This document shows, in pieces, positions 22,155 through 43,924 of a DNA stretch of 48,954 nt (position 1 is its first letter; every line of letters starts with the position of its first letter). The notes under the pieces were generated by a model. It was not told the DNA's origin. It saw only the letters and a program-made list of their open reading frames with translations, and did not search any database. The stretch is taken from positions 1 to 48,954 of the forward strand of contig CAZQFQ010000003.1 in NCBI GenBank assembly GCA_964592725.1. The letters are read 5' to 3'. A program made the translations under genes and the position numbers. This DNA is from an uncultured Candidatus Saccharibacteria bacterium. Lineage in GTDB: Bacteria; Patescibacteriota; Doudnabacteria; UBA920.

Positions 22155-23006
22155 ATGCCGATCAAATTCAAAACCCTTTTTCTCTCCCTGCTCCTGGTTG
22201 AACTCCTTTTTGCCTATGCTCCGGCCTTTGCCCAAAGCCCGTCGCCGGATTACAGCAAAGCCGGGGTATCCACGCAAATTGAAACCTATCTCTGCAATCC
22301 CACCGATACGACCGGGGGGATCCTGTATAAATGCATTAACCAAATTTACAAATTTGCCATAGTGGTGGCCAGCGTTATGGGCGTGTTCTTTATTGTCATT
22401 GCCGGCTATGTTTATATGTCGGCCGAGGGCAACAGCGAATCCACAACCAAAGCCAAGGACATCTTAGTTAGCACCATCACCGCTTTGGTCATCCTGTTTG
22501 GCGGCTACGCCTTGCTCAACACCATCAACCCCGACCTGGTCCAATTCCACGGCAATACCTTACAGCCGGTGAATATTGCGGCGCCGGCAGTAACAACGGG
22601 AATTACTACGCCTTTAGCAGGTTACAATATTGGTGCATATGATGCCGGTGAGCCCCAACAAGCCGTTGCCGTAACCTCCATATATAATAGACTTTTGGCA
22701 TTAAATCTGTCTACGGCAGATCAAATGACGCAGTATATGAATAGCTCAGCCCAAGGTATCGGAAAAAGCGGGAGTCCAATTACCGGGCAAATGGTTCTAA
22801 GTGCCTCTTCTGCCACAAATGTTGACCCTAAAATGGTTATGGCGATTATGGAAGAAGAAAGCCATTATGGAAGCGATGGGGCAAGCACCGCAGTTGCTAA
22901 TTTTAACCCGGGAAATATACAATCAGGAAATTCTGACATAAATTACGGTAATTGGCAGGCGGGAGTAAATGCGGTAGCTAATTGGCTTAATGGCCATAGG
23001 GCTTGA
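22155..23006 (+). CDS. TrbC/VirB2-type pilin-like N-terminal module fused to a GH73/lysozyme-like C-terminal domain
   Basis: Signal peptide, Cys pair, two TM helices (FAIVVASVMGVFFIVIAGYVYM; TALVILFGGYALL) and NPDLV. The C-terminus VDPKMVMAIMEEESHYG..NFNPGNI..NYGNWQAGVNAVANWL fits a glucosaminidase-type muramidase pattern. Confidence 0.55.
   Translation: MPIKFKTLFLSLLLVELLFAYAPAFAQSPSPDYSKAGVSTQIETYLCNPTDTTGGILYKCINQIYKFAIVVASVMGVFFIVIAGYVYMSAEGNSESTTKAKDILVSTITALVILFGGYALLNTINPDLVQFHGNTLQPVNIAAPAVTTGITTPLAGYNIGAYDAGEPQQAVAVTSIYNRLLALNLSTADQMTQYMNSSAQGIGKSGSPITGQMVLSASSATNVDPKMVMAIMEEESHYGSDGASTAVANFNPGNIQSGNSDINYGNWQAGVNAVANWLNGHRA
22167..22597 (+). repeat. 431-bp exact direct repeat, copy 1 (5' module of the pilin-like genes)
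   Basis: Base-for-base identical to 23438-23868 by direct comparison of the printed sequence. Confidence 0.9.
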
Positions 23007-23425: not shown

Positions 23426-24301
23426 ATGCCCCAAACCTTCAAAACCCTTTTTCTCTCCCTGCTCCTGGTTGAACTCCTTTTTGCCTATGCTCCGGCCTTT
23501 GCCCAAAGCCCGTCGCCGGATTACAGCAAAGCCGGGGTATCCACGCAAATTGAAACCTATCTCTGCAATCCCACCGATACGACCGGGGGGATCCTGTATA
23601 AATGCATTAACCAAATTTACAAATTTGCCATAGTGGTGGCCAGCGTTATGGGCGTGTTCTTTATTGTCATTGCCGGCTATGTTTATATGTCGGCCGAGGG
23701 CAACAGCGAATCCACAACCAAAGCCAAGGACATCTTAGTTAGCACCATCACCGCTTTGGTCATCCTGTTTGGCGGCTACGCCTTGCTCAACACCATCAAC
23801 CCCGACCTGGTCCAATTCCACGGCAATACCTTACAGCCGGTGAATATTGCGGCGCCGGCAGTAACAACAGTAACTCCGGTCACAACCGCATGCAACCAAA
23901 CTTTTGGAGGTAGCGCATCTGTGGGATGTAGCGGATCAAGCTGCGTGAATGTATCATCTTATACTTCTAGCCATGACTGCAGTAGTAATGGGGGAGTATG
24001 TCTGCTTTCCCAGCAAGCCGCTCAAAAAGCCCAAAATCTCATCAATAATTTTAACCAAGCGGGGGCCGGTTGTACTTTAAAAATATCAGCAGCAATTGAA
24101 AGCGCCACAGGACCCAGTATTTCTTCTTGTCATAGTAACGGAACTTGCGCTGATTTTAACCTAATACCCTACAATTCCACCTGTGCACAGGCATTTTATA
24201 ATGCGGCTCAAGCCGCTGGCGCAGTTTCACTTTTGGATGAATATGTCCCAGCTTGCGTAGCCGGCTCGACCACAGGGGGAAATATCCACGTAAATTTTTA
24301 A
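23426..24301 (+). CDS. TrbC/VirB2-type pilin-like N-terminal module fused to a Cys-rich LAS/M15-like (D-Ala-D-Ala peptidase fold) C-terminal domain
   Basis: The N-terminal 148 aa are identical to 22155-23006 from residue 5 onward. The C-terminus has SSCHSNGTCADFNL (SxHxxGxAxD) and a terminal GGNIHVNF, consistent with a zinc peptidase of the LAS/M15 type. Confidence 0.5.
   Translation: MPQTFKTLFLSLLLVELLFAYAPAFAQSPSPDYSKAGVSTQIETYLCNPTDTTGGILYKCINQIYKFAIVVASVMGVFFIVIAGYVYMSAEGNSESTTKAKDILVSTITALVILFGGYALLNTINPDLVQFHGNTLQPVNIAAPAVTTVTPVTTACNQTFGGSASVGCSGSSCVNVSSYTSSHDCSSNGGVCLLSQQAAQKAQNLINNFNQAGAGCTLKISAAIESATGPSISSCHSNGTCADFNLIPYNSTCAQAFYNAAQAAGAVSLLDEYVPACVAGSTTGGNIHVNF
23438..23868 (+). 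repeat. 431-bp exact direct repeat, copy 2
   Basis: Identical to 22167-22597. Confidence 0.9.
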
Positions 24302-35892: not shown

Positions 35893-36516
35893 TTAAGCTT
35901 CTATCTTATCGTATGCGCCCAACAAACCCAAAGTCAGGTTGATTATTTGTTTTATCTCCTTTATCTGGCTTTCAACCATTACCCTAATATCTTCCGGCAC
36001 TTCACCTTCAATCGGAACTCTTGAGTCGCCCTGGCCCAGCGCCACAAAAATAAGGAACTCCTGGCGCAAGTCCTCGTCCATCAGGGTAAGCGATCTGTTA
36101 ACAATTTCTGATTCCGCGGCTCCGGGCAAATCAATCAGCGCCTGGCTTCGGGCTTTCCGGAATGCTTCCCTAAGATGTTCCGGCGCTTTATCCAAATGGT
36201 CGTCGGGCTTGTCTATAAATTGAATTTTTTCCCTGGCGGCCAGCAATTCCCCAATCCTGTGCACCGAATGCAAAAGCAGCTCGCATTTCTGTTTGGAGAT
36301 AATTTTTTTCCTTACGATTTGCAGCAAAATCGTCTGGACCCCGAAAAAAAAAGTGGCGGATAGCTTTGAAGGTTTGTCGGCAGGCTGTTCCCTGTTTGTC
36401 GGTACAACATCGTTATAATTCCTGTTTAACTCCACCAAAGCGTCTATTGCCATTTTTTTAGCAATTTCTTTCTGGGATTCCACATCCTTTTGCTCGGACC
36501 GATGTTCAACCATCAT
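35893..36516 (-). CDS. hypothetical protein, predicted helical
   Basis: 207-aa ORF upstream of the RHH gene on the same strand. No recognisable motif. Confidence 0.5.
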   Translation of the reverse strand: MMVEHRSEQKDVESQKEIAKKMAIDALVELNRNYNDVVPTNREQPADKPSKLSATFFFGVQTILLQIVRKKIISKQKCELLLHSVHRIGELLAAREKIQFIDKPDDHLDKAPEHLREAFRKARSQALIDLPGAAESEIVNRSLTLMDEDLRQEFLIFVALGQGDSRVPIEGEVPEDIRVMVESQIKEIKQIINLTLGLLGAYDKIEA

Positions 36517-36583: not shown

Positions 36584-37063
36584 TCACTTTTTCTTTTGGT
36601 ATACGGCAAAAGCAAATTTAAAATTTCTTTCTTCCTGGATTTTATCCCACTGGCTCCAATCGATTTTTACAAAATATGCGTCGCCCGGATAATTGCCGTG
36701 GATATGGGTCATATACATTTTTTCGGCATAAGGCAAAGCGAGCTTAAAAATCTGCTCGCCGCCGATAATATATAAATCTTCATTTTTCAAAGCTTCAAAA
36801 GCCTGCTCCAGGCTGCCGAACACCAACACTCCCTGGGGCACTTTATAGTCGGCCTGCCTTGTAATAACCACATTTTTCCGCCCCGGCAGGGGCTTGCCCA
36901 GGCGCTTGACTATGGAATCGTAGGTCTTTCTGCCCATGACCACAGTCTTGCCCAAAGTGATTTCCTTAAACCGCTTGAGGTCTTCGGGAAAATACCAGGG
37001 CAGTTCATTGTCGCTGCCGATAACCAAATTGTCCGCCACTGCCACCGGGCCAAGAATAATCAT
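36584..37063 (-). CDS. folA: dihydrofolate reductase
   Basis: VIGSDNELPWYFPEDLKRFKEITLGKTVVMGRKTYDSI, LYIIGGEQIF. ATGA overlap with the upstream gene. Confidence 0.92.
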   Translation of the reverse strand: MIILGPVAVADNLVIGSDNELPWYFPEDLKRFKEITLGKTVVMGRKTYDSIVKRLGKPLPGRKNVVITRQADYKVPQGVLVFGSLEQAFEALKNEDLYIIGGEQIFKLALPYAEKMYMTHIHGNYPGDAYFVKIDWSQWDKIQEERNFKFAFAVYQKKK

Positions 37064-37443
37064 AAATATTGTTTCAAAAAAATTAAGATATCGCCAACTG
37101 ACGCATAGCGTATGATTTTAAAATTTGGATCTTGTATGCCCAGAATCATACGGGTAACTTTGGCGTCTTTTTGAGCTACTGCCAAAACTTTTTTTCCTAA
37201 ATTTAATCCCGTCGCGATTTCAAATCCCAAACCGGTGGAAGGATATGAGACTTCCGCCAAAAGCAGATCGCAATTTTTTACGCAACCAATGTCATGCCTA
37301 AAAACGGCCTCGGCATTACCATTAATCAAACCCAAATATTCTGAAACTTCGTGATCTTGGCTTAATTTTGACCTAAGCTTTGCCATTTCCGATTTGTATT
37401 CTTCGGGGGCATGGGTTAGGGAGTTTGCCAGATATATTTTCAT
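37060..37443 (-). CDS. nucleoside 2-deoxyribosyltransferase / Rcl(DNPH1)-like protein
   Basis: 127 aa from MKIYLANSL... The ATG at 37443 overlaps the tmk stop as ATGA. ..CDLLLAEVSYPSTGLGFEIATGLNLGKKV fits the family core. The longer ORF-track call (to 37542) overlaps tmk and was not used. Confidence 0.5.
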   Translation of the reverse strand: MKIYLANSLTHAPEEYKSEMAKLRSKLSQDHEVSEYLGLINGNAEAVFRHDIGCVKNCDLLLAEVSYPSTGLGFEIATGLNLGKKVLAVAQKDAKVTRMILGIQDPNFKIIRYASVGDILIFLKQYL

Positions 37444-38186
37444 GTTCTTGGCTTTATATCTTTTAAAGCTATCCTCCTGACCAGCTCCCAGACTTTGTTG
37501 TGGATTTGTTCGGGGGACATCAGCTCCTTGCCGGCCATGCATTCCACCAGTTTGGTGTTGGGGAAAAGTTTGGCGATTTGCAAGTAAACTTTTTCCGCGT
37601 TTTTTAAATGATTGAGGTCGGCCTCATGCAGGTCGCGCTTTTTACCGTTGGCGTATTTTCTTTCATCAGCCGATTTTAAATCCACCAATTTCTGCGCCAC
37701 TTCCGCCGGCACGTGCAAAATGATATTTAAGTCGGGTTTGGGGATGCCAAAAATGTTGTATTCAAGATTGTCCAGCCATTTAAAAAACTTCAGCCGGTCC
37801 AAATCATCGGCAATTTTGCCTCCCTGGTGTCCGGCGTTGGCCGTAACATAGCGATTGGAAATTACGATTTTCCCTTCGTTTAGCCAATTGCGGATTTTAA
37901 AGCTGGCGTCAAACCTGTCAATCGCGTAAAAGATAGACGCGGCTTCGGGTCCAACCTGCCCGTATTTTCCGTTTAAATATTCTTCAATAAGCCCCGCGGA
38001 TTTTGTGCCGTACTGCGGAAAGTCCGTCATCTCCAAAGGATATCCGTTCTTTTTTAACTCTTCTACAAGCAATTTAGTTTGTGTGGCCTTGCCAGTGCCG
38101 TCAGTGCCGTCAATAACTATAAACCTGCCTTTTTGGGGGGAAGATTTGAATTTTTTACTTTTACCAAAGGATAATTTGTTGAGCAT
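37440..38186 (-). CDS. tmk: thymidylate kinase
   Basis: P-loop FIVIDGTDGTGKATQ, a DRF-type motif (AIDRFD) and a lid region. Confidence 0.9.
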   Translation of the reverse strand: MLNKLSFGKSKKFKSSPQKGRFIVIDGTDGTGKATQTKLLVEELKKNGYPLEMTDFPQYGTKSAGLIEEYLNGKYGQVGPEAASIFYAIDRFDASFKIRNWLNEGKIVISNRYVTANAGHQGGKIADDLDRLKFFKWLDNLEYNIFGIPKPDLNIILHVPAEVAQKLVDLKSADERKYANGKKRDLHEADLNHLKNAEKVYLQIAKLFPNTKLVECMAGKELMSPEQIHNKVWELVRRIALKDIKPRT

Positions 38187-38192
38187 ATAAAA

Positions 38193-38975
38193 CTAACCCC
38201 GTTCCTTTTGGGCTTTATTAATGGCGGCTAACTGTTCAATTTCGAATTTTACTATTTCATAGGCCTTATGTTTTCTATAATCAGTTTCATAATGTGCTTC
38301 AAGAATTTGACCCTTGAAATCCATTTGGACATCTCTGTTTAATCGGCCACTCAGCTCTGTAAACAATTTCTGTTCATATTTGTCTGTCACCTGGCCATCA
38401 ACAAATTCAACTTTTTTGGATTCGACTTGGCCCATAATTTCAGCCCTGCGCGAACCCACTATAAAATCCGGAGACGGGACATACAACCCGGGTTTTAGAA
38501 CAACCTTATCTGCAAAATTTGTTTGATTAATGCCATAAGCCAATACAATACCGTTCGCGTTGGCCCACCATCTTAAATTCCTTTCCGCATAGTCTAAGCC
38601 CGAATAGCCGGAATGATATTTTAACCTGGCTTCAGTTGGAACCCACCAATCCACCCCTCCCTCAAAGGGTTGCTCCGAAATAAATTTTTCGTCGGTGACC
38701 ATAACGTCCACGTCTTTATGTGCGTCCAAATCAGCAATAGTATTACGCGGTTTCCATATTGCTTCCGCAACTCCACCGATTAACAATCCAACTGATTTTC
38801 TTTGTTTTAATAATTCGTCCGCTATTTTCATTCCTTGCAAGCCACGGACGGCATTAGGAAATTCACCATGGCGCAATTCCTGCCTAAAAGACAATAAAGT
38901 CTCCAGCGCCAATTTCTGTTTATGGTTAAACTTTTGTTCCAGCCTGTTTTGCTGTCGAAACTCAAATCCCGGCAT
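38193..38975 (-). CDS. hypothetical protein, possible minimal nucleotidyltransferase fold
   Basis: 260 aa. GLLIGGVAEAIW...HKDVDVMV resembles the G[SG]...DxD signature of pol-beta-type NTases. Embedded in the nucleotide operon. Confidence 0.3.
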   Translation of the reverse strand: MPGFEFRQQNRLEQKFNHKQKLALETLLSFRQELRHGEFPNAVRGLQGMKIADELLKQRKSVGLLIGGVAEAIWKPRNTIADLDAHKDVDVMVTDEKFISEQPFEGGVDWWVPTEARLKYHSGYSGLDYAERNLRWWANANGIVLAYGINQTNFADKVVLKPGLYVPSPDFIVGSRRAEIMGQVESKKVEFVDGQVTDKYEQKLFTELSGRLNRDVQMDFKGQILEAHYETDYRKHKAYEIVKFEIEQLAAINKAQKERG

Positions 38976-38976
38976 T

Positions 38977-39528
38977 TTAATTTTGTAGTTTACTTATAAT
39001 TTCATCCACTTTCTTATAAAGCTCCCCTAAACTTCCCGTGTTATCTATTCTAAAATCCGCCTGCTTGCCCAGTTCGGGAATTTCCAGTTCGGTGCGGCAG
39101 GTTTCGTGCTCTTTAAAATGCTCAAAATCCATTTGCGCGTCATCGGTTTTGCCGCTTTTTCCCCCGCGCCGGTTTTTATAGCGCTCAAATCGCGTCTCAA
39201 TCGGCGCCGTAATATAAATAATTTTTGCTCCCCAGGATTTTACAATGTCCAGCTCGTCCATTCGAATGCCGTTAACCACTCTATAGCCGGCCATAGAGCG
39301 TTTTACTCTTGGCTCCAAAGCGTTAATTAAGACGTGCTCGCCAAAAACTTCGCGAAGCCCCAGACCTAAGTCTATTTCATTTTTTCTGGAAATTTCCAAA
39401 TTCAATTCTTCTAAAATCGCGTCTAAAATGTGGCTAAAACGAAAATGCGAGGCGTTATATTTTTCCGCCATATAATCGGCTACCGTGTCTTTTCCCGCAA
39501 GTTTTTCTCCAACCAGACCTATTATCAT
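38977..39528 (-). CDS. P-loop kinase, phage-type dNMP kinase-like
   Basis: MIIGLVGEKLAGKDTVADYM.. (GxxGxxxAGKDT P-loop). 183 aa, 1 nt upstream of the next gene. Confidence 0.5.
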   Translation of the reverse strand: MIIGLVGEKLAGKDTVADYMAEKYNASHFRFSHILDAILEELNLEISRKNEIDLGLGLREVFGEHVLINALEPRVKRSMAGYRVVNGIRMDELDIVKSWGAKIIYITAPIETRFERYKNRRGGKSGKTDDAQMDFEHFKEHETCRTELEIPELGKQADFRIDNTGSLGELYKKVDEIISKLQN

Positions 39529-39593: not shown

Positions 39594-40034
39594 TTAATTC
39601 TGATATCCACCGGTGCTCCCAATCCCCCCACGATCGACATCGCGCAAACTGTCCGCCTCTTCCCACCGCGCCTGCTCGGTTCCGATGAATACGCCCTGCG
39701 CCAGACGCTCACCTTTTTTAACTTCTACGGGGCGGGAAGTAAAATTATGGACAATTATATGGACTTCATCATTAGGTCCGGCATAGTCCGGATCCACGAC
39801 TCCAATGCCGTTGGCCATTGCCAAACCTTTTTTTAGCGGCAGGCTGCTGCGAGCCGCTATGAGTAAAAAATGGCCTTTAGGGGCGGCAATTACCAATCCT
39901 GTGGGTATTTTTGCCACTTCACCCGGAGCTATGGTTATATCGATTGATGAAGCAATGTCAAAGCCGGCCGATTCGGAGGTGTGATATTTGGGAAGCTCAA
40001 CGTCTTTGGTTAATCGCTTAATTTTGGCTTTCAT
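39594..40034 (-). CDS. dut: dUTP diphosphatase (trimeric dUTPase)
   Basis: All five motifs: AGFDI, ARSS, GVVDPDYAGP, RLAQ, RGGIGSTG. Confidence 0.92.
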   Translation of the reverse strand: MKAKIKRLTKDVELPKYHTSESAGFDIASSIDITIAPGEVAKIPTGLVIAAPKGHFLLIAARSSLPLKKGLAMANGIGVVDPDYAGPNDEVHIIVHNFTSRPVEVKKGERLAQGVFIGTEQARWEEADSLRDVDRGGIGSTGGYQN

Positions 40035-40047
40035 AGGTATATCTCAC

Positions 40048-40148
40048 GGGCGTCATCCTGAGGAAGTGCATCCGACCGAAGGATCTCTTTACCGATTTGA
40101 GATCCTTCGCCCGCTTAGTTTTGCCGATGACGGGCTCAGGATGACGCC
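40048..40148. repeat. GTCATCCTGAG...CGAAGGATCTC palindromic element
   Basis: GGGCGTCATCCTGAGGAAGTGCATCCGACCGAAGGATCTC..GAGATCCTTCG..CTCAGGATGACGCC. Supplies the last codons of 40136-40696. Confidence 0.75.
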
Positions 40149-40696
40149 AGGTTGGTTAATACTTGATCGATTTTAGTAAACAACTCCTCCCTGCTCCCTT
40201 CGTTCACAATCGTCCAGTCCGCGCGCGCAATCGGTCCGGCCTGGTGGAGATTTTCAATTTGAGAATAATCGCGCGAAGCCAGCTCTCCCGGAGTCAGCGG
40301 CCGCACCGGCCGTTGCTCCATACGGGCGGTCCTGATTTTTGGCGATGCGTAAATTGCCAAAACTTTAAAACTCTCGCCAAATTGCTTTTTTACTTCCAAA
40401 TATTCTTCCCAGCTGTATAAACTTTCCACGATAACATTTGACGATTTAAATAATTCCTTAATCTTCGGCATATTAGCAACAGCCATTGCCCCGAGACCGT
40501 CTTTGTCGCGAAATTCCTCCCGCACTTCCCTCTCTCCGGCTTCCCCGGGTTTTCCCCGCCGCGCGGCCTCGTCTATAACCGCCTGCCCAAAATAAACTTT
40601 CGGCCAGCCGGTCTTTTTTAACAAATATTGCACAACTTCGGTTTTCCCGGCTCCGGGCAGACCGACTACTGCGAGAATAATTTTTTTCATAATCAT
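40136..40696 (-). CDS. P-loop nucleotide kinase (dephospho-CoA-kinase/UPF0200-like)
   Basis: ILAVVGLPGAGKTEVVQYL P-loop. 186 aa. ATGA overlap with the dCMP deaminase stop. Confidence 0.5.
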   Translation of the reverse strand: MIMKKIILAVVGLPGAGKTEVVQYLLKKTGWPKVYFGQAVIDEAARRGKPGEAGEREVREEFRDKDGLGAMAVANMPKIKELFKSSNVIVESLYSWEEYLEVKKQFGESFKVLAIYASPKIRTARMEQRPVRPLTPGELASRDYSQIENLHQAGPIARADWTIVNEGSREELFTKIDQVLTNLASS

Positions 40697-41181
40697 CTAC
40701 TGAATAATTCACTCGCTCCTTCGCACAAATAAACATCCCTAATACCGGCTGACAGCATTTTGTCCCAGCAAGGCTTACAACACCACCAATGGCCGTACAT
40801 ATAAAGATCGGCGCCGGAGATTGCGGCGTTTTTTCGCAAAGCGTCCAAAACCGCCCTGGCTTCCGCGTGATGCCTAAAACTGGCACAGCCCGGGCAAAGC
40901 CAATATTTTTGGCCTGAAGGAATATTTAACAAACGCCGAACGCAAAAATATTTTTTATGCCATCGTTTTAGAGTTTCATTTTTTAAAGCCGACTGGTTAG
41001 CCCCCCTGCCAATTACTACACCGTCTTTGACGACAACGGCTCCGGTCGAATGGGCGGTATCAGTCGAATCCCCTTTACAAACTTTCATGGCCTCCAGCAT
41101 GAATTCATTATTAAAGGGCGCGTATTTTATATCCTTGCCTTGCGGCATATAAGGATAGGGTTTTGATGAAATATATACCAT
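40693..41181 (-). CDS. dCMP deaminase (ComEB-type cytidine/deoxycytidylate deaminase)
   Basis: Zinc motifs HAEARAV and CKPCWDKM. 162 aa. Confidence 0.8.
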   Translation of the reverse strand: MVYISSKPYPYMPQGKDIKYAPFNNEFMLEAMKVCKGDSTDTAHSTGAVVVKDGVVIGRGANQSALKNETLKRWHKKYFCVRRLLNIPSGQKYWLCPGCASFRHHAEARAVLDALRKNAAISGADLYMYGHWWCCKPCWDKMLSAGIRDVYLCEGASELFSR

Positions 41182-41187
41182 CTACTA

Positions 41188-41853
41188 TTATACTTTTTTA
41201 AAAGGGAACTTTGCTTTTAAACCGTCAATATCGCCTTTTTTAATAAACGCAATTTCTTCTTCATTGTCGGTGCGGGCTTCCAAATTTACGGCTGTGGCAT
41301 TATCATACTTCGCGTGATCTACGCCGTGTTTAGCCGCGTCCGCTTCGGAAAGTTCGCTTGCCAAAAAATGGAATAAAAGCTGATAAGCACGTTCGCCCGG
41401 GTACAGCCTTAAACTATGATTTGTGCTGTTCTGCACGGGTATCAGCAAATGGCCTTTATAGCCCACGTCGACTATGCCGCCCTGGGTCACAAAACCTCGG
41501 CGAACAATGGAGCTGCGCGGATAAAGCACGGCTGAAATGTCCCTGGACCTAAATTCGACTTTTTCAAATGAGGAAATTAGCACTGACTCCTGCGGGAGCA
41601 CCTCAAAATATTGCCCGGCCTTTAATTTTATTAACTTTAAATAGTCCTGGTTGAATTCCTTGGTTAAATAGTCCGGCTGTACCGCTACTCTGCCGGCGTC
41701 GGTTAATTTCCAGCTTTCGGGCAAATAAAAACTGGTTCCTATGCGAAGGTCAATGGAATTAGGCTGGATTTGGAACTCGTCAAGTTGGGGGGAAAAGACA
41801 ATTTTGCCCTCTTCAATATATTTTACCAACTCGGTTTTTCCTAACATCGACAT
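41188..41853 (-). CDS. dCTP deaminase-family (dUTPase-fold) protein lacking the canonical catalytic Glu
   Basis: N-terminus ..IQPNSIDLRIG and core YPRSSIVRRG..VDVGYKGHLLIPVQN align by eye to Dcd (..VDVRLG; GRSSLARLG..IDPGWSGCIVLEFYN). The Glu of (V/T)LE is Pro here. Confidence 0.6.
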   Translation of the reverse strand: MSMLGKTELVKYIEEGKIVFSPQLDEFQIQPNSIDLRIGTSFYLPESWKLTDAGRVAVQPDYLTKEFNQDYLKLIKLKAGQYFEVLPQESVLISSFEKVEFRSRDISAVLYPRSSIVRRGFVTQGGIVDVGYKGHLLIPVQNSTNHSLRLYPGERAYQLLFHFLASELSEADAAKHGVDHAKYDNATAVNLEARTDNEEEIAFIKKGDIDGLKAKFPFKKV

Positions 41854-41874: not shown

Positions 41875-42717
41875 TTACAAGACTATTTTTAACCCGGCTA
41901 TGGGCGGCATGGGCTCATATTGGGATGTCAGTATCCCCGTAATTTCCTCCACTAATTTTTCATCCCCAAGTTCGGCCCGGCCAAACCAATCCGGCTGGGC
42001 GTCCAATAGGACTTCCGGGTGTTTGTTCTCGCGCTCCAATAATTCCCAGGACTGTTTATAATGAATATCATAAATATGGGCGTTGGAAATGGAATGCGTG
42101 TAAGTCCCGGGCTTTACCCCTAAGCGCGCCGCCAATAAATGCTGCAATAAAGAAAATCCGGCAACATCATGGGGGCAGCCCAATATCATATCGTTTGAAC
42201 GGACCACGTTATGCAAATGTAATTTGTTGCCGATAATATTGACTGTAAATGTAAATGGGCAAGGCACATTTTTTTTCGGCGTGGATTTAAGTCCCGGGCC
42301 GTATAAACCATCGTCGGCCGGATCCCAAGTAACGACCACCGCCTGCCTCGAATGAGGCTCTATTTCCAAATGTTTGACCAACTGGCCAAGCTGATCGCGG
42401 CCAAAATGGTGGCGCCAGCGGTAGCCGTAAGCCGCCGCTACGGTGCCGTCGCTTTCCGTAAAATCTTTCCAAATGCCGGTGTATTTATTTAAAAACTCAT
42501 CCGGCCTTTTAGACCCCATAATATACCAAATCATTTCCGCCACAAATAACTTAATCGGAATTTTTCTTAGAGTCAACAGGGGAAAACCGTTATCCACGCG
42601 AATGGTTACACCGGGTAAAATCTTTATTTTATGCCCGGTTCTTTCATTTAGCTCCTCATAACCCTTGTTCATTATGTCCAAAATGGCTTTTTTGTATTCC
42701 TGATCAAATTGCGTCAT
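41875..42717 (-). CDS. thymidylate-synthase-family pyrimidine C5-modifying enzyme (non-canonical; Asp at the Asn177 position)
   Basis: Gap-free TS blocks: ERTG, AEMIWY, YGYRWR, catalytic VPCPF (Cys153, codon 42259-42261), RSNDMILGCPHDVAGF, AHIY. The canonical PFNIA reads PHDVA (Asp184, codon 42166-42168). Strong SD AAGGAGG lies upstream. Confidence 0.8.
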   Translation of the reverse strand: MTQFDQEYKKAILDIMNKGYEELNERTGHKIKILPGVTIRVDNGFPLLTLRKIPIKLFVAEMIWYIMGSKRPDEFLNKYTGIWKDFTESDGTVAAAYGYRWRHHFGRDQLGQLVKHLEIEPHSRQAVVVTWDPADDGLYGPGLKSTPKKNVPCPFTFTVNIIGNKLHLHNVVRSNDMILGCPHDVAGFSLLQHLLAARLGVKPGTYTHSISNAHIYDIHYKQSWELLERENKHPEVLLDAQPDWFGRAELGDEKLVEEITGILTSQYEPMPPIAGLKIVL

Positions 42718-42739
42718 AATCGTACTTTTTTACCTCCTT

Positions 42740-42768
42740 ATTCTACACCAATTTTTAATGGTTGACAA
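42740..42768 (-). promoter_or_regulatory. sigma70-type promoter of the nucleotide operon
   Basis: Minus strand TTGTCA, 17-nt spacer, TAGAAT. Followed by AAGGAGG and the ATG at 42717. Confidence 0.6.
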
Positions 42769-42790
42769 AGTTTTTCAAATACCCTAAAAT
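42762..42790 (+). promoter_or_regulatory. consensus sigma70-type promoter, divergent, sharing its -35 with the operon promoter
   Basis: TTGACA, 17-nt spacer, TAAAAT. Its -35 (42762-42767) overlaps the minus-strand -35 (42763-42768). Confidence 0.6.
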
Positions 42791-42798
42791 TCAAACAA

Positions 42799-42879
42799 AT
42801 GAGCAAAATCTTCTCTTCCAGCATTATCATTATTATTACTCCGACGCCGCTGGCTGTGGGAAGAGTTTTGTTTAGATAG
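42799..42879 (+). CDS. candidate leaderless 26-aa hydrophobic micro-ORF, or a non-coding sRNA of about 130 nt
   Basis: The ATG lies 8 nt after the -10 box. Encodes MSKIFSSSIIIIITPTPLAVGRVLFR*. The unit ends at the strong terminator 42892-42925. Confidence 0.3.
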   Translation: MSKIFSSSIIIIITPTPLAVGRVLFR

Positions 42880-42891
42880 ATTTAAACTCTT

Positions 42892-42925
42892 AACCCCCTG
42901 GCCCAAGCGGCCAGGGGGTTTTTTG
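42892..42925 (+). terminator. rho-independent terminator
   Basis: AACCCCCTGGCC-caag-CGGCCAGGGGGTT followed by TTTT. Confidence 0.85.
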
Positions 42926-42948
42926 TATAGCGCGAAGCAACTTATTTT

Positions 42949-42994
42949 TCTCCCCCTCTGGGGGAGATGCCGAGGCAGCCGAGGCAGAGAGGGT
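42949..42994 (-). repeat. CTCTCCC/GGGGGAGA hairpin repeat, copy b (inverted)
   Basis: Its reverse complement, ACCCTCTCTGCCTCGGCTGCCTCGGCATCTCCCCCAGAGGGGGAGA, matches 9537-9583 at both ends. Confidence 0.7.
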
Positions 42995-43102
42995 TTAGTA
43001 TTCGGGGATAATCTTTGCTGGCACAAGACTGTCCCAACCAGTCTTGTGCCCACAAGGCACTAAAATCCCAGCCGGCGCCGCCGGCAACAAACAGGAGGAG
43101 AC

Positions 43103-43357
43103 ATGAAAAACTGCATCTATGTGCCGCAAGAACTTCGAGTGGATATCGGCCCAGACAGCCTGGTAAAGGGCAAAAGGATTGAAGGTACCGACCTGACAAT
43201 CCTGGAAATTACAGAGCCAAAAACCCTAAGCCCATCTTATTACCTCATCTGTCGGGCTGATGACGGTCAGGAATTTCTCGGGCTTCGCCCCGAAAACAGT
43301 CCTGCTACAGTATTCACATACCATAAGTTGGTAAATTTGGACGATTCGGCCAATTAA
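43103..43357 (+). CDS. hypothetical protein
   Basis: 84-aa ORF with a strong SD (AGGAGGAGAC-ATG), a structured GC-rich 5' region and its own terminator. No recognisable motif. Confidence 0.55.
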   Translation: MKNCIYVPQELRVDIGPDSLVKGKRIEGTDLTILEITEPKTLSPSYYLICRADDGQEFLGLRPENSPATVFTYHKLVNLDDSAN

Positions 43358-43398
43358 ACCGTCCGTTTAGACGACCGATTGCGGAAGATCGCTAACAC

Positions 43399-43440
43399 GG
43401 CGGGAACAGCCAACCGGCTTGTTCCCGCCTTCACTTTTTT
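43399..43440 (+). terminator. rho-independent terminator
   Basis: GGCGGGAACAGCC-aac-CGGCTTGTTCCCGCC followed by a T tract. Confidence 0.75.
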
Positions 43441-43483
43441 AAAAAAAGCCGCCCAATCAAGGCGGCCTTCAAAAAGATAAAAG

Positions 43484-43924
43484 TTAGCTTAAAGGCTTGG
43501 AAAAATCCACTATCTCGTAATTAGGCGGGGTCTCCCCTTTAAACATTTTTTCCTGCACAACCTTTAAAATTGCTTCCGAATTATTCTGGGATTTTAAAAG
43601 GTAGGCCTCAATGCCCAAAGCCTTGGCCGTCTGAATTTCTTCCTGATTGGAAAAATTGCTTAAGACAATCACCATAGTCTTGGAGATGTTTTCATCCGGA
43701 TATTCGCGCAGCCTTTTTAAAAAATCCAGCCCTTTGACTTTTGGCAACAGCAAATCCAAAACGACCAGTTTAGGCAAATGAAAAAGCAATTTTTCCATGG
43801 CCTCTTCGCCGTCATAGGCTAAAGAAACATCCAGGCCGTGGCCGGAAAGGTAGGCGCTCAAAGTGTTGCGGTAGTCAACGTCATCCTCGACAATCAAAAC
43901 TTTTTTGGACAGGTCATCTGACAT
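43484..43924 (-). CDS. stand-alone response-regulator receiver domain (CheY-like)
   Basis: KVLIVEDDVD, VVLDLLLP (phospho-acceptor Asp), VLSN, AYLLKS (Lys). 146 aa with no output domain. Confidence 0.85.
   Translation of the reverse strand: MSDDLSKKVLIVEDDVDYRNTLSAYLSGHGLDVSLAYDGEEAMEKLLFHLPKLVVLDLLLPKVKGLDFLKRLREYPDENISKTMVIVLSNFSNQEEIQTAKALGIEAYLLKSQNNSEAILKVVQEKMFKGETPPNYEIVDFSKPLS

Follow-up and report, generated by a model that had tools for sequence, protein, structure and literature searches.

To our knowledge, cellular thymidylate synthesis is treated as universally carried out by ThyA, a thymidylate synthase (TS) that is specific for dUMP and carries Asn177 (E. coli numbering), or by ThyX. 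The ThyA homologues described so far as dCMP methylases come from phages with 5-methylcytosine (5mC) in their DNA, and the CMP hydroxymethylases described come from antibiotic gene clusters. Here, we analyze a TS-fold gene with Asp at the Asn177 position in a genome of the Candidate Phyla Radiation (CPR). It lies at 41875 to 42717 on the minus strand of contig CAZQFQ010000003.1 (assembly GCA_964592725.1, uncultured Candidatus Saccharibacteria bacterium, assigned to the Doudnabacteria in GTDB); the window is the whole stretch of this contig that was analyzed, 48,954 nucleotides in length. On the strength of its sequence, we lean toward reading the gene product as a 5,10-methylenetetrahydrofolate (CH2-THF)-dependent dCMP C5-methyltransferase that would feed an inverted thymidylate pathway, with methylation before deamination.

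In a comparison of cytosine-modified and unmodified phage contigs, positions 177 and 147 were the most discriminating TS positions, and the same study recalls mutagenesis in which Asn to Asp turns TS into a dCMP methylase (PMC8670742). For this exchange, the mutagenesis cited there and in a second study (PMC13326640) is that of Liu & Santi 1992 and Hardy & Nalivaika 1992; both studies describe N177D or N229D mutants of TS whose preference is switched to dCMP. Together with phage metagenomics, this mutagenesis backs a first-pass annotation of the window, which had stated that engineered Asn to Asp variants of TS turn toward dCMP. Other activities of the fold have markers of their own. Replacement of Leu143 by Asp or Glu admits water and leads to hydroxymethylation, as in T4 gp42 and MilA, and D169N leads to synthesis of 5-hydroxy-dCMP in enzymes of the RB69 gp48 and DLP3 gp80 type (PMC13326640). 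Ser167 to Ala together with Arg126' to Lys gives MilA and BcmA their specificity for ribonucleotides (PMC5175136).

Both an Xp12-type dCMP methylase and the idea of methylating before deaminating are already known for phages. 5-Methyldeoxycytidine (5mdC) arises in E. coli when T4 gp1 is co-expressed with the Xp12 enzyme or with any of five Asp-type enzymes from metagenomes, and cytosine is reported to be fully replaced by 5mC in phages Xp12 and PaMx74 (bioRxiv 10.1101/2024.12.05.627091). The same preprint reports that deaminases encoded in cis with an Asp-type TS can be 5mC-selective and proposes that the deaminase converts 5mdCTP to dTTP, a single TS homologue thereby providing T as well as 5mC. 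In Xp12 itself, the gene order is a haloacid dehalogenase (HAD) hydrolase, the Asp-type TS, a gene annotated as dCMP deaminase, and dihydrofolate reductase (DHFR).

The CPR gene and its landmarks are as follows:
41875 to 42717, minus strand: TS-fold gene with Asp184, 280 amino acids, predicted Xp12-type CH2-THF-dependent dCMP C5-methyltransferase
42166 to 42168, minus strand: codon GAT of Asp184, equivalent to Asn177, the pyrimidine-specificity position of E. coli ThyA
42256 to 42270, minus strand: NVPCP (Asn150-Val-Pro-Cys153-Pro154), with Pro at the His147 position and Asn at the Leu143 position
42740 to 42768, minus strand: promoter-like site TTGTCA-17-TAGAAT 5' of the TS gene, a consensus match only

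The gene starts with ATG, with AAGGAGG upstream, and Pfam Thymidylat_synt (PF00303) covers residues 6 to 242 of its product (E 6e-50). Read on the minus strand, the key codons are AAT for Asn150 (42270-42268), TGC for Cys153 (42261-42259), CCA for Pro154 (42258-42256), CAT for His183 (42171-42169), and GAT for Asp184 (42168-42166). HMMER aligns 'cpHDvagf' of this protein over 'vpFNiasy' of solved thymidylate synthases without gaps, and the register is the same when MAFFT aligns the protein to E. coli ThyA, gp42 of T4, and the enzyme of Xp12. The alignment with ThyA and gp42 that the first-pass annotation had suggested thus places Asp, not Asn, at the specificity position, in agreement with its central claim. 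Several finer points of that annotation are also borne out: Cys153 is, by alignment, the catalytic nucleophile; the departures from TS consensus that it listed (PCH to PCP, SRR to SRQ, QRS to VRS, and GD.H.Y to SNAHIY) are all real; and the T4 gp42 context that it quoted is correct (MRSNDVVFGFRNDYAW, with Asp179 in the same column; sequence from NC_000866).

The protein lies far under seven of the eight NCBIfam ThyA equivalog cut-offs (e.g., 136.5 versus 327) and passes only TIGR03284, marginally (112.7 versus 108.35). In an AlphaFold2 model (pLDDT 89.6), it adopts the TS fold in full, with TM scores of 0.75 to 0.81 to TS structures. A PDB sequence search and a Foldseek search with this model returned generic TS structures only and did not discriminate the substrate; PDB 1njc, the L. 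casei N229D mutant with dCMP, is among the PDB matches.

We examined the signature in two sets of homologues: the 120 best matches from a search of 5.8 billion proteins (64 to 96% identity) and 80 homologues from GTDB species genomes (52 to 75% identity). Named matches are Doudna-, Falkow-, Uhr-, Kuenen-, or Parcubacteria, or carry the label Patescibacteria group. Four positions are invariant across both sets (120/120 and 80/80), with Asp at 177, Pro at 147 (canonical His), Asn at 143 (canonical Leu), and Phe at 83 (canonical Trp). Position 127, canonically Arg, is Gln or His in both sets; position 165, canonically Gln, is Val or Ile in the 120 closest and mostly Val or Ile in the 80; and position 205, canonically Asp, is Asn in 120/120 and either Asn (68) or His (12) among the 80. 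Position 176 varies in the CPR clade, being His, Phe, or another residue among the species-genome homologues. The catalytic and phosphate- or ribose-binding residues C146, E58, Y94, R126, R166, S167, D169, H207, and Y209 are retained; Cys146 is present in 80/80, D169 (Asp176 here) in 120/120 and 80/80, and R21 in all of the 120 closest and 71/80. The occurrence of Asp in every one of these homologues indicates that Asp184 is neither a chance substitution nor a sequencing error. The family resembles a housekeeping one and is spread across the CPR. A number of loci with the CPR-type cluster (L009-L011, L013, L018, L027, and others) come from third-party-annotation metagenome-assembled genomes (MAGs) titled 'uncultured Gammaproteobacteria bacterium'; in these, rplA is adjacent, with 67 to 70% identity, which suggests wrong record titles.

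The closest characterized relative is, by sequence comparison, the Xp12 methylase rather than T4 gp42, to which the first-pass annotation had compared the protein. The CPR protein is 37% identical to the Xp12 enzyme over 243 residues (154 bits), 24% identical to E. coli ThyA (95 bits), and 22% identical to T4 gp42 (40 bits), and it scores 265.6 bits against a hidden Markov model (HMM) of Xp12-type enzymes versus 216.8 bits against a model of the closest canonical representatives. In a tblastn search of 50,697 phage genomes, the leading matches, at 33 to 40% identity, were to Xp12, PaMx28/PaMx74, Ruegeria phage Tedan, RDJL Phi1, and siphoviruses of Achromobacter. When 1.84 billion cluster representatives (clustered at 50% identity) were searched with HMMER, 110 clusters matched at E <= 1e-30. 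Asp177 is present in about 128 of the best 150 representatives and is accompanied by Pro147 in 100 of them; no representative with the canonical combination W83/R127/H147/Q165/F176/N177/D205 ranks above E ~1e-32, and it is found in 14 of the 150. In a rough neighbor-joining (NJ) tree, the CPR clade falls within the Asp-type assemblage, and the canonical clade is split from the CPR clade plus the Xp12-type enzymes in 188/200 bootstrap replicates. Rooting on gp42 joins the CPR and Xp12-type enzymes in 117/200 replicates with all columns and in 99/200 without the signature columns, with alternatives at <=23/200.

Much of this kinship is carried by the active site. The Xp12 enzyme (QNN97214.1) has the same Asp at N177, Pro at H147, Asn at L143, and Phe at W83; it has likewise lost D205 and kept D169, C146, R166, and S167; and the two proteins have in common the motifs AYGYRWRxHFGRDQL, WDPAxDGL...KNVPCP, RSxD..G.PxDV, and AHxY. 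The relationship with the Xp12-type enzymes appears to rest largely on this signature and these motifs. Both systems are also linked to a deaminase of the cytidine deaminase fold and to DHFR. They differ in that position 176 is mostly His or Phe in the CPR and Tyr in Xp12, and position 205 is Asn in the CPR and His in Xp12. The CPR gene is cellular, lying between ribosomal-protein genes of a CPR chromosome and occurring in many CPR lineages; its partner deaminase comes from another lineage, and the nucleotide hydrolase next door has the dCTP deaminase (DCD) fold rather than being a HAD or MazG protein. Among relatives of the protein are two fusions, one of a dCMP_cyt_deam_1 deaminase to an Asp-type TS on a 210-kb contig (P0164) and one of a MazG/PRA-PH pyrophosphohydrolase to an Asp-type TS (P0194). 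A further Asp-type TS is fused to an HNH endonuclease (P0157).

Compared with canonical ThyA (EC 2.1.1.45), the CPR protein has the same fold, length class, C-terminal tail (...YEPMPPIAGLKIVL, versus ...YDPHPGIKAPVAI in E. coli), and DHFR linkage, and it keeps Cys146, Glu58, Tyr94, Arg21, Arg126, Arg166, Ser167, Asp169, His207, and Tyr209. It differs at Asn177 (Asp), His147 (Pro), Leu143 (Asn), Trp83 (Phe), Arg127 (Gln/His), Gln165 (Val/Ile), and Asp205 (Asn). With T4 gp42 it has in common Asp at the specificity position, the RSND....G...D.A context, and the catalytic Cys. However, gp42 has its own Asp145 at the Leu143 position and Thr after the Cys, lacks the TS-type tail that the CPR protein keeps, and catalyzes a non-reductive reaction.

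Read against the published residue rules, these positions point to a particular chemistry. Asp184 indicates a cytosine substrate, and Ser174 with Arg124 indicates a deoxyribonucleotide, the Ala/Lys markers of MilA and BcmA being absent. The canonical pair Asn177 and His147 is absent from the protein and from all 200 homologues, in which Asp and Pro are invariant. The ThyA-fold ligands Cys146, R21, R166, S167, H207, and Y209 are present. Position 143 is Asn (Asn150), as in the Xp12 enzyme and 68/76 Xp12-type representatives, and the hydroxymethylase marker Asp/Glu occurs neither in this protein nor in any of the 120 and 80 homologues. The D169N exchange of 5-hydroxy-dCMP synthases is absent as well, and retention of Asp176 argues for a one-carbon transferase, not a hydroxylase. 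The C-terminal tail, the full TS fold of the model, and the linked DHFR favor reductive methylation of dCMP. From this pattern we infer that dCMP is probably the main substrate, and, if it is, that the product probably carries a methyl rather than a hydroxymethyl or hydroxyl group. The first-pass annotation had predicted a dCMP-directed C5 enzyme that either methylates or hydroxymethylates, with folA in favor of a reductive methyl transfer; the computational evidence supports the substrate and narrows the prediction to methylation, given the Xp12 signature, the lack of an acidic residue at 143, the tail, and the DHFR.

The TS gene is followed on the same strand by a series of genes for nucleotide metabolism:
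41188 to 41853, minus strand: DCD-fold protein without the deaminase Glu (Pfam DCD), predicted dNTP pyrophosphatase (dCTP and/or dUTP to monophosphate)
40693 to 41181, minus strand: divergent zinc deaminase of the dCMP-deaminase fold (Pfam dCMP_cyt_deam_1), with H105-x-E107 and C135-x-x-C138
40136 to 40696, minus strand: P-loop nucleotide kinase (AAA_17), its start overlapping the deaminase stop
39594 to 40034, minus strand: classical trimeric dUTPase (Pfam; NCBIfam dut above cut-off)
38977 to 39528, minus strand: T4 gp1-type dNMP kinase (DNMK; Pfam PF21448; PHROG 139, E 1e-18)
38193 to 38975, minus strand: open reading frame (ORF) of 260 amino acids within the cluster
37440 to 38186, minus strand: thymidylate kinase, Tmk (Pfam PF02223, E 1e-22)
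37060 to 37542, minus strand: homologue of DNPH1/Rcl-like 2'-deoxynucleoside 5'-phosphate N-hydrolase (Pfam Nuc_deoxyrib_tr; best PDB match Rcl/DNPH1)
36584 to 37063, minus strand: DHFR, folA (Pfam DHFR_1, E 1e-50), 4.8 kb downstream of the TS gene
35893 to 36516, minus strand: ORF of 207 amino acids within the cluster

The TS gene stands at the head of this tightly packed cluster, with a 21-nt gap before the DCD-fold gene, a 6-nt gap before the deaminase gene, and a 4-nt overlap with the P-loop kinase gene. The folA linkage stated in the first-pass annotation is present. In the DCD-fold protein, Pro139 (codon 41437-41439) occupies the place of the catalytic Glu of the GxxTLE motif (E129 of the M. 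tuberculosis DCD-DUT, E138 of E. coli), and it does so in at least 90% of an alignment of the window protein with 47 CPR homologues. The Asp of IDxG and a dUTPase-like PGER..Q are kept. Because the Glu is lost and these two elements are kept, we predict a pyrophosphatase rather than a deaminase; with a classical dUTPase also present, the protein may act on dCTP or 5mdCTP. We rejected a Glu-less DCD as an 'archaeal-type dUTPase', since the SIRV1 dUTPase keeps the Glu, and a paper on Dictyostelium Dcd2 and the CPR does not address the Glu-less variant.

The best profile and fold matches of the zinc deaminase are dCMP deaminases (S-TIM5, S. mutans, human DCTD, PBCV-1 bi-DCD, and T4 Cd), the last three being the best by fold. 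A family-specific insert of about 20 residues carries invariant H75, C80, C96, and C99, likely a second zinc site, and an invariant GHWWC motif is present. The family is very divergent and CPR-wide (617 database matches at E <= 1e-5), and only three weak matches were found among phages. We rejected the possibility that it is an orthologue of the phage 5mC-selective family, given a pairwise E value of 0.006 to the Xp12 deaminase. The family could be a source of candidate 5mC-acting deaminases.

As for the remaining genes, the cluster combines two P-loop dNMP-kinase-like genes (38977-39528 and 40136-40696) in one cellular nucleotide cluster, and kinases of the T4 gp1 type phosphorylate modified dNMPs in phages. 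The best PDB matches of the N-hydrolase homologue include '5-hydroxymethyl-dUMP N-hydrolase'. Because its ORF as listed runs 103 nt into tmk and is not matched by Pfam before residue 36, translation probably starts further downstream; the enzyme could clear dead-end or aberrant dNMPs. The ORFs of 260 and 207 amino acids have no match in Pfam, NCBIfam, or PHROGs.

The association of these genes extends across the CPR. Within 10 kb of the TS gene in 80 CPR loci, we detected the deaminase in 66, the DCD-fold gene in 47, and DHFR in 42; DNMK and the N-hydrolase are near the TS gene in 15 and 9 of the loci. Considering only the 57 loci that are well flanked (at least 3 kb on both sides of the TS gene) and a distance of 3 kb, the deaminase is found in 45, DHFR in 32, and the DCD-fold gene in 29. 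Gene order is not fixed, with both divergent and co-directional arrangements, and this speaks for selection on the linkage itself. A single-sequence scan of IMG/VR found no relative of the protein, and an alignment-based scan found two CPR-type and 20 Xp12-type contigs. Among the Xp12-type contigs, the deaminase lies beside the Asp-type TS in 18/20, and all four genes are present in 14/20. The two CPR-type contigs, L083 (3300031521_000456) and L084 (3300025858_000007), encode a CPR-type TS (55 to 58% identity) and a dUTPase, and L084 also encodes a CPR-type deaminase; they are either CPR phages with a borrowed module or CPR fragments misfiled as viral.

By analogy, the CPR cluster appears to mirror the phage logic, in which a nucleotide hydrolase, an Asp-type TS, and a deaminase are combined, along with DHFR, with non-orthologous partners. 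As in the phage route from 5mdCTP to dTTP, an Asp-type TS stands in cis with a deaminase of the dCMP_cyt_deam_1/MafB19 families, and cytosine would be methylated and then deaminated to thymine. Unlike that route, which was described for fully 5mC-containing phages, the CPR system has a deaminase with no close relative in it, and whereas the Xp12 product replaces cytosine in DNA, conversion to thymidylate is more likely in the CPR.

In the mechanism that we propose, Asp184 would pair with N3 and N4 of cytosine, such that dCMP is bound and dUMP is not. Cys153 would attack C6, and CH2-THF would donate both the carbon and the hydride, the one-carbon unit being reduced to a methyl group to give 5-methyl-dCMP and dihydrofolate (DHF), which the linked DHFR would recycle to tetrahydrofolate. 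We infer that the zinc deaminase then acts on 5-methyl-dCMP, or on 5mdCTP after phosphorylation by the dNMP kinases, to give dTMP or dTTP, with Tmk acting after deamination. The Glu-less DCD-fold protein would provide dCMP from dCTP and/or remove dUTP. Since 5-methyl-dCMP is accepted by canonical dCMP deaminases, human DCTD among them, the chemistry would need no exotic adaptation. 5-Methyl-dCMP is probably not an end product in the CPR cell, and we give about even chances to this inverted route being the physiological role of the cluster. No second TS and no ORF with the ThyX motif RHR-x7-S was found in the flanks of the CPR loci (about 20 kb per genome), which is weak evidence. A broader claim, that a large part of the CPR lacks a dUMP-dependent TS and makes thymidylate by dCMP methylation followed by a dedicated deaminase, is made tentatively, at somewhat less than even chances.

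Several observations weigh against this interpretation. The context of dUTPase, DCD-fold protein, dCMP-deaminase-fold protein, Tmk, and DHFR exactly fits the classical route from dUMP to dTMP as well. The CPR deaminase is not orthologous to those of phages and has almost no relatives in phages, and mSCD-B5, the phage enzyme that has been characterized, uses triphosphates rather than 5mdCMP (bioRxiv 10.1101/2024.12.05.627091). In the rooted NJ analysis, bootstrap support for joining the CPR and Xp12-type enzymes is only 50 to 59%, and when the eight signature columns are removed, the Kimura distance is 1.41 to Xp12-type enzymes and 1.44 to canonical representatives; given these near-equal distances and this support, the shared signature could be convergent or ancestral. 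The gene context and the near-equal distances also favor an ordinary TS, in which a protonated Asp184 and compensating changes would recognize uracil and the genes would form a classical dTTP cluster, each neighbor being readable as a supplier of dUMP or consumer of dTMP. The fold and tail are of the TS type, and Asn229 of L. casei TS is not essential for catalysis. Every source names the family 'thymidylate synthase', and thyA has been counted among the core genes of Patescibacteria from groundwater (PMC12455944). However, all of the cited Asp-type enzymes of known activity use a cytosine nucleotide (T4 gp42, MilA, BcmA, Xp12, RB69/DLP3, and the five metagenomic enzymes), the N177D and N229D mutants switch to dCMP, the invariant Asp is accompanied by six further active-site changes, each shared with the Xp12 enzyme or common among Xp12-type representatives, and nearly all of the ThyA equivalog cut-offs are missed. 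We consider an ordinary TS unlikely. An enzyme methylating both dUMP and dCMP, with two routes to thymidylate, would accommodate the dUMP-forming enzymes, a deaminase able to act after methylation, the intermediate position of the CPR clade between canonical and Xp12-type sequences, and its variable position 176. No natural dual-specificity TS was found in the literature searched, though, and an Asp that is strictly invariant points to a defined hydrogen-bonding partner, which makes this improbable.

Two other alternatives keep cytosine as the substrate and change the fate or the identity of the product. If 5-methyl-dCMP were passed on by DNMK and nucleoside diphosphate kinase, 5mC could enter CPR DNA, replacing cytosine in part or in full and shielding it from host or phage nucleases. 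The enzyme type is that of Xp12, T4 gp1-type dNMP kinases are in the cluster, and the DCD-fold pyrophosphatase could deplete dCTP as T4 gp56 does, yet DNMK accompanies the TS gene far less often than the deaminase does, and the deaminase and Tmk fit conversion to thymidylate. Cell-wide replacement of cytosine is also unprecedented, with no report in the literature searched and no dedicated dCTPase or polymerase adaptation to support it, and we think it just as improbable as dual specificity. Asp at the specificity position and the gp42-like RSND motif would also suit a dCMP or CMP hydroxymethylase of the T4 gp42, MilA, or BcmA type, perhaps working with a DNPH1/MilB-like N-hydrolase that releases the modified base, and a hydrolase of the nucleoside-deoxyribosyltransferase fold does lie in the cluster, as MilB lies beside MilA. 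Against this stand Asn instead of Asp/Glu at position 143, Ser174 and Arg124 of the deoxyribo type instead of Ala/Lys, the low similarity to gp42, the presence of the TS tail, a linked DHFR for which non-reductive transfer has no need, and the scarcity of the N-hydrolase near the TS gene; a hydroxymethylase is very improbable. Reductive methylation of dCMP ahead of deamination thus continues to be the reading that we favor.

A literature search for Asp-type TS, dCMP methylase, thyX, or 5mC in the CPR/Patescibacteria returned nothing relevant, most subscription journals being outside its reach; with the same limit, no Asp-type ThyA homologue was found described as the resident 'thymidylate synthase' of cells. 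The finding calls into question whether all cells make thymidylate from dUMP. Should the CPR "thyA" prove to be a dCMP methylase, cells would have a third route to thymidine, automated pipelines would have misannotated a core gene throughout a major bacterial radiation, and CPR metabolic reconstructions would need revision, as would expectations for antifolates and inhibitors of the 5-fluoro-dUMP (FdUMP) type. Its product in the nucleotide pool could also shape the modification state and mutation spectrum of CPR DNA. Under the broader claim of a CPR without dUMP-dependent TS, 5-methyl-dC nucleotides would be obligatory DNA-precursor intermediates, some of which might leak or be deliberately placed into DNA. 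Phage 5mC pathways would gain a cellular counterpart in the question of their origin: the Xp12-type pathway could derive from such cells, or the reverse. The linked, highly divergent deaminases would offer new candidates for 5mC-selective enzymes, which are already used in methylome sequencing.

The setting of the cluster is that of a cellular chromosome. It is flanked by prf/ftsEX/pyrG and rplA/rplK/nusG, and fmt, def, gltX, three tRNA genes, and a CPR-typical DUF5671 gene lie in the window as well; given these genes (rplA, rplK, nusG, prf, ftsEX, pyrG, fmt, def, gltX, and the tRNAs), we rejected a phage or prophage origin of the window. An Rfam scan near the operon, spacer included, found no riboswitch and no other RNA match. 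This spacer, an ORF-poor 766 bp (42718-43483), separates the TS gene from a stand-alone response-regulator gene (43484-43924) and contains a perfect 12-bp GC-rich hairpin followed by a T-run at 42892-42920, as well as promoter-like sites on both strands at about 42740-42790. Elsewhere in the window, two paralogous genes with T4SS-pilin domains lie on the plus strand at 22155-23006 and 23426-24301, with an ORF of 138 amino acids between them.

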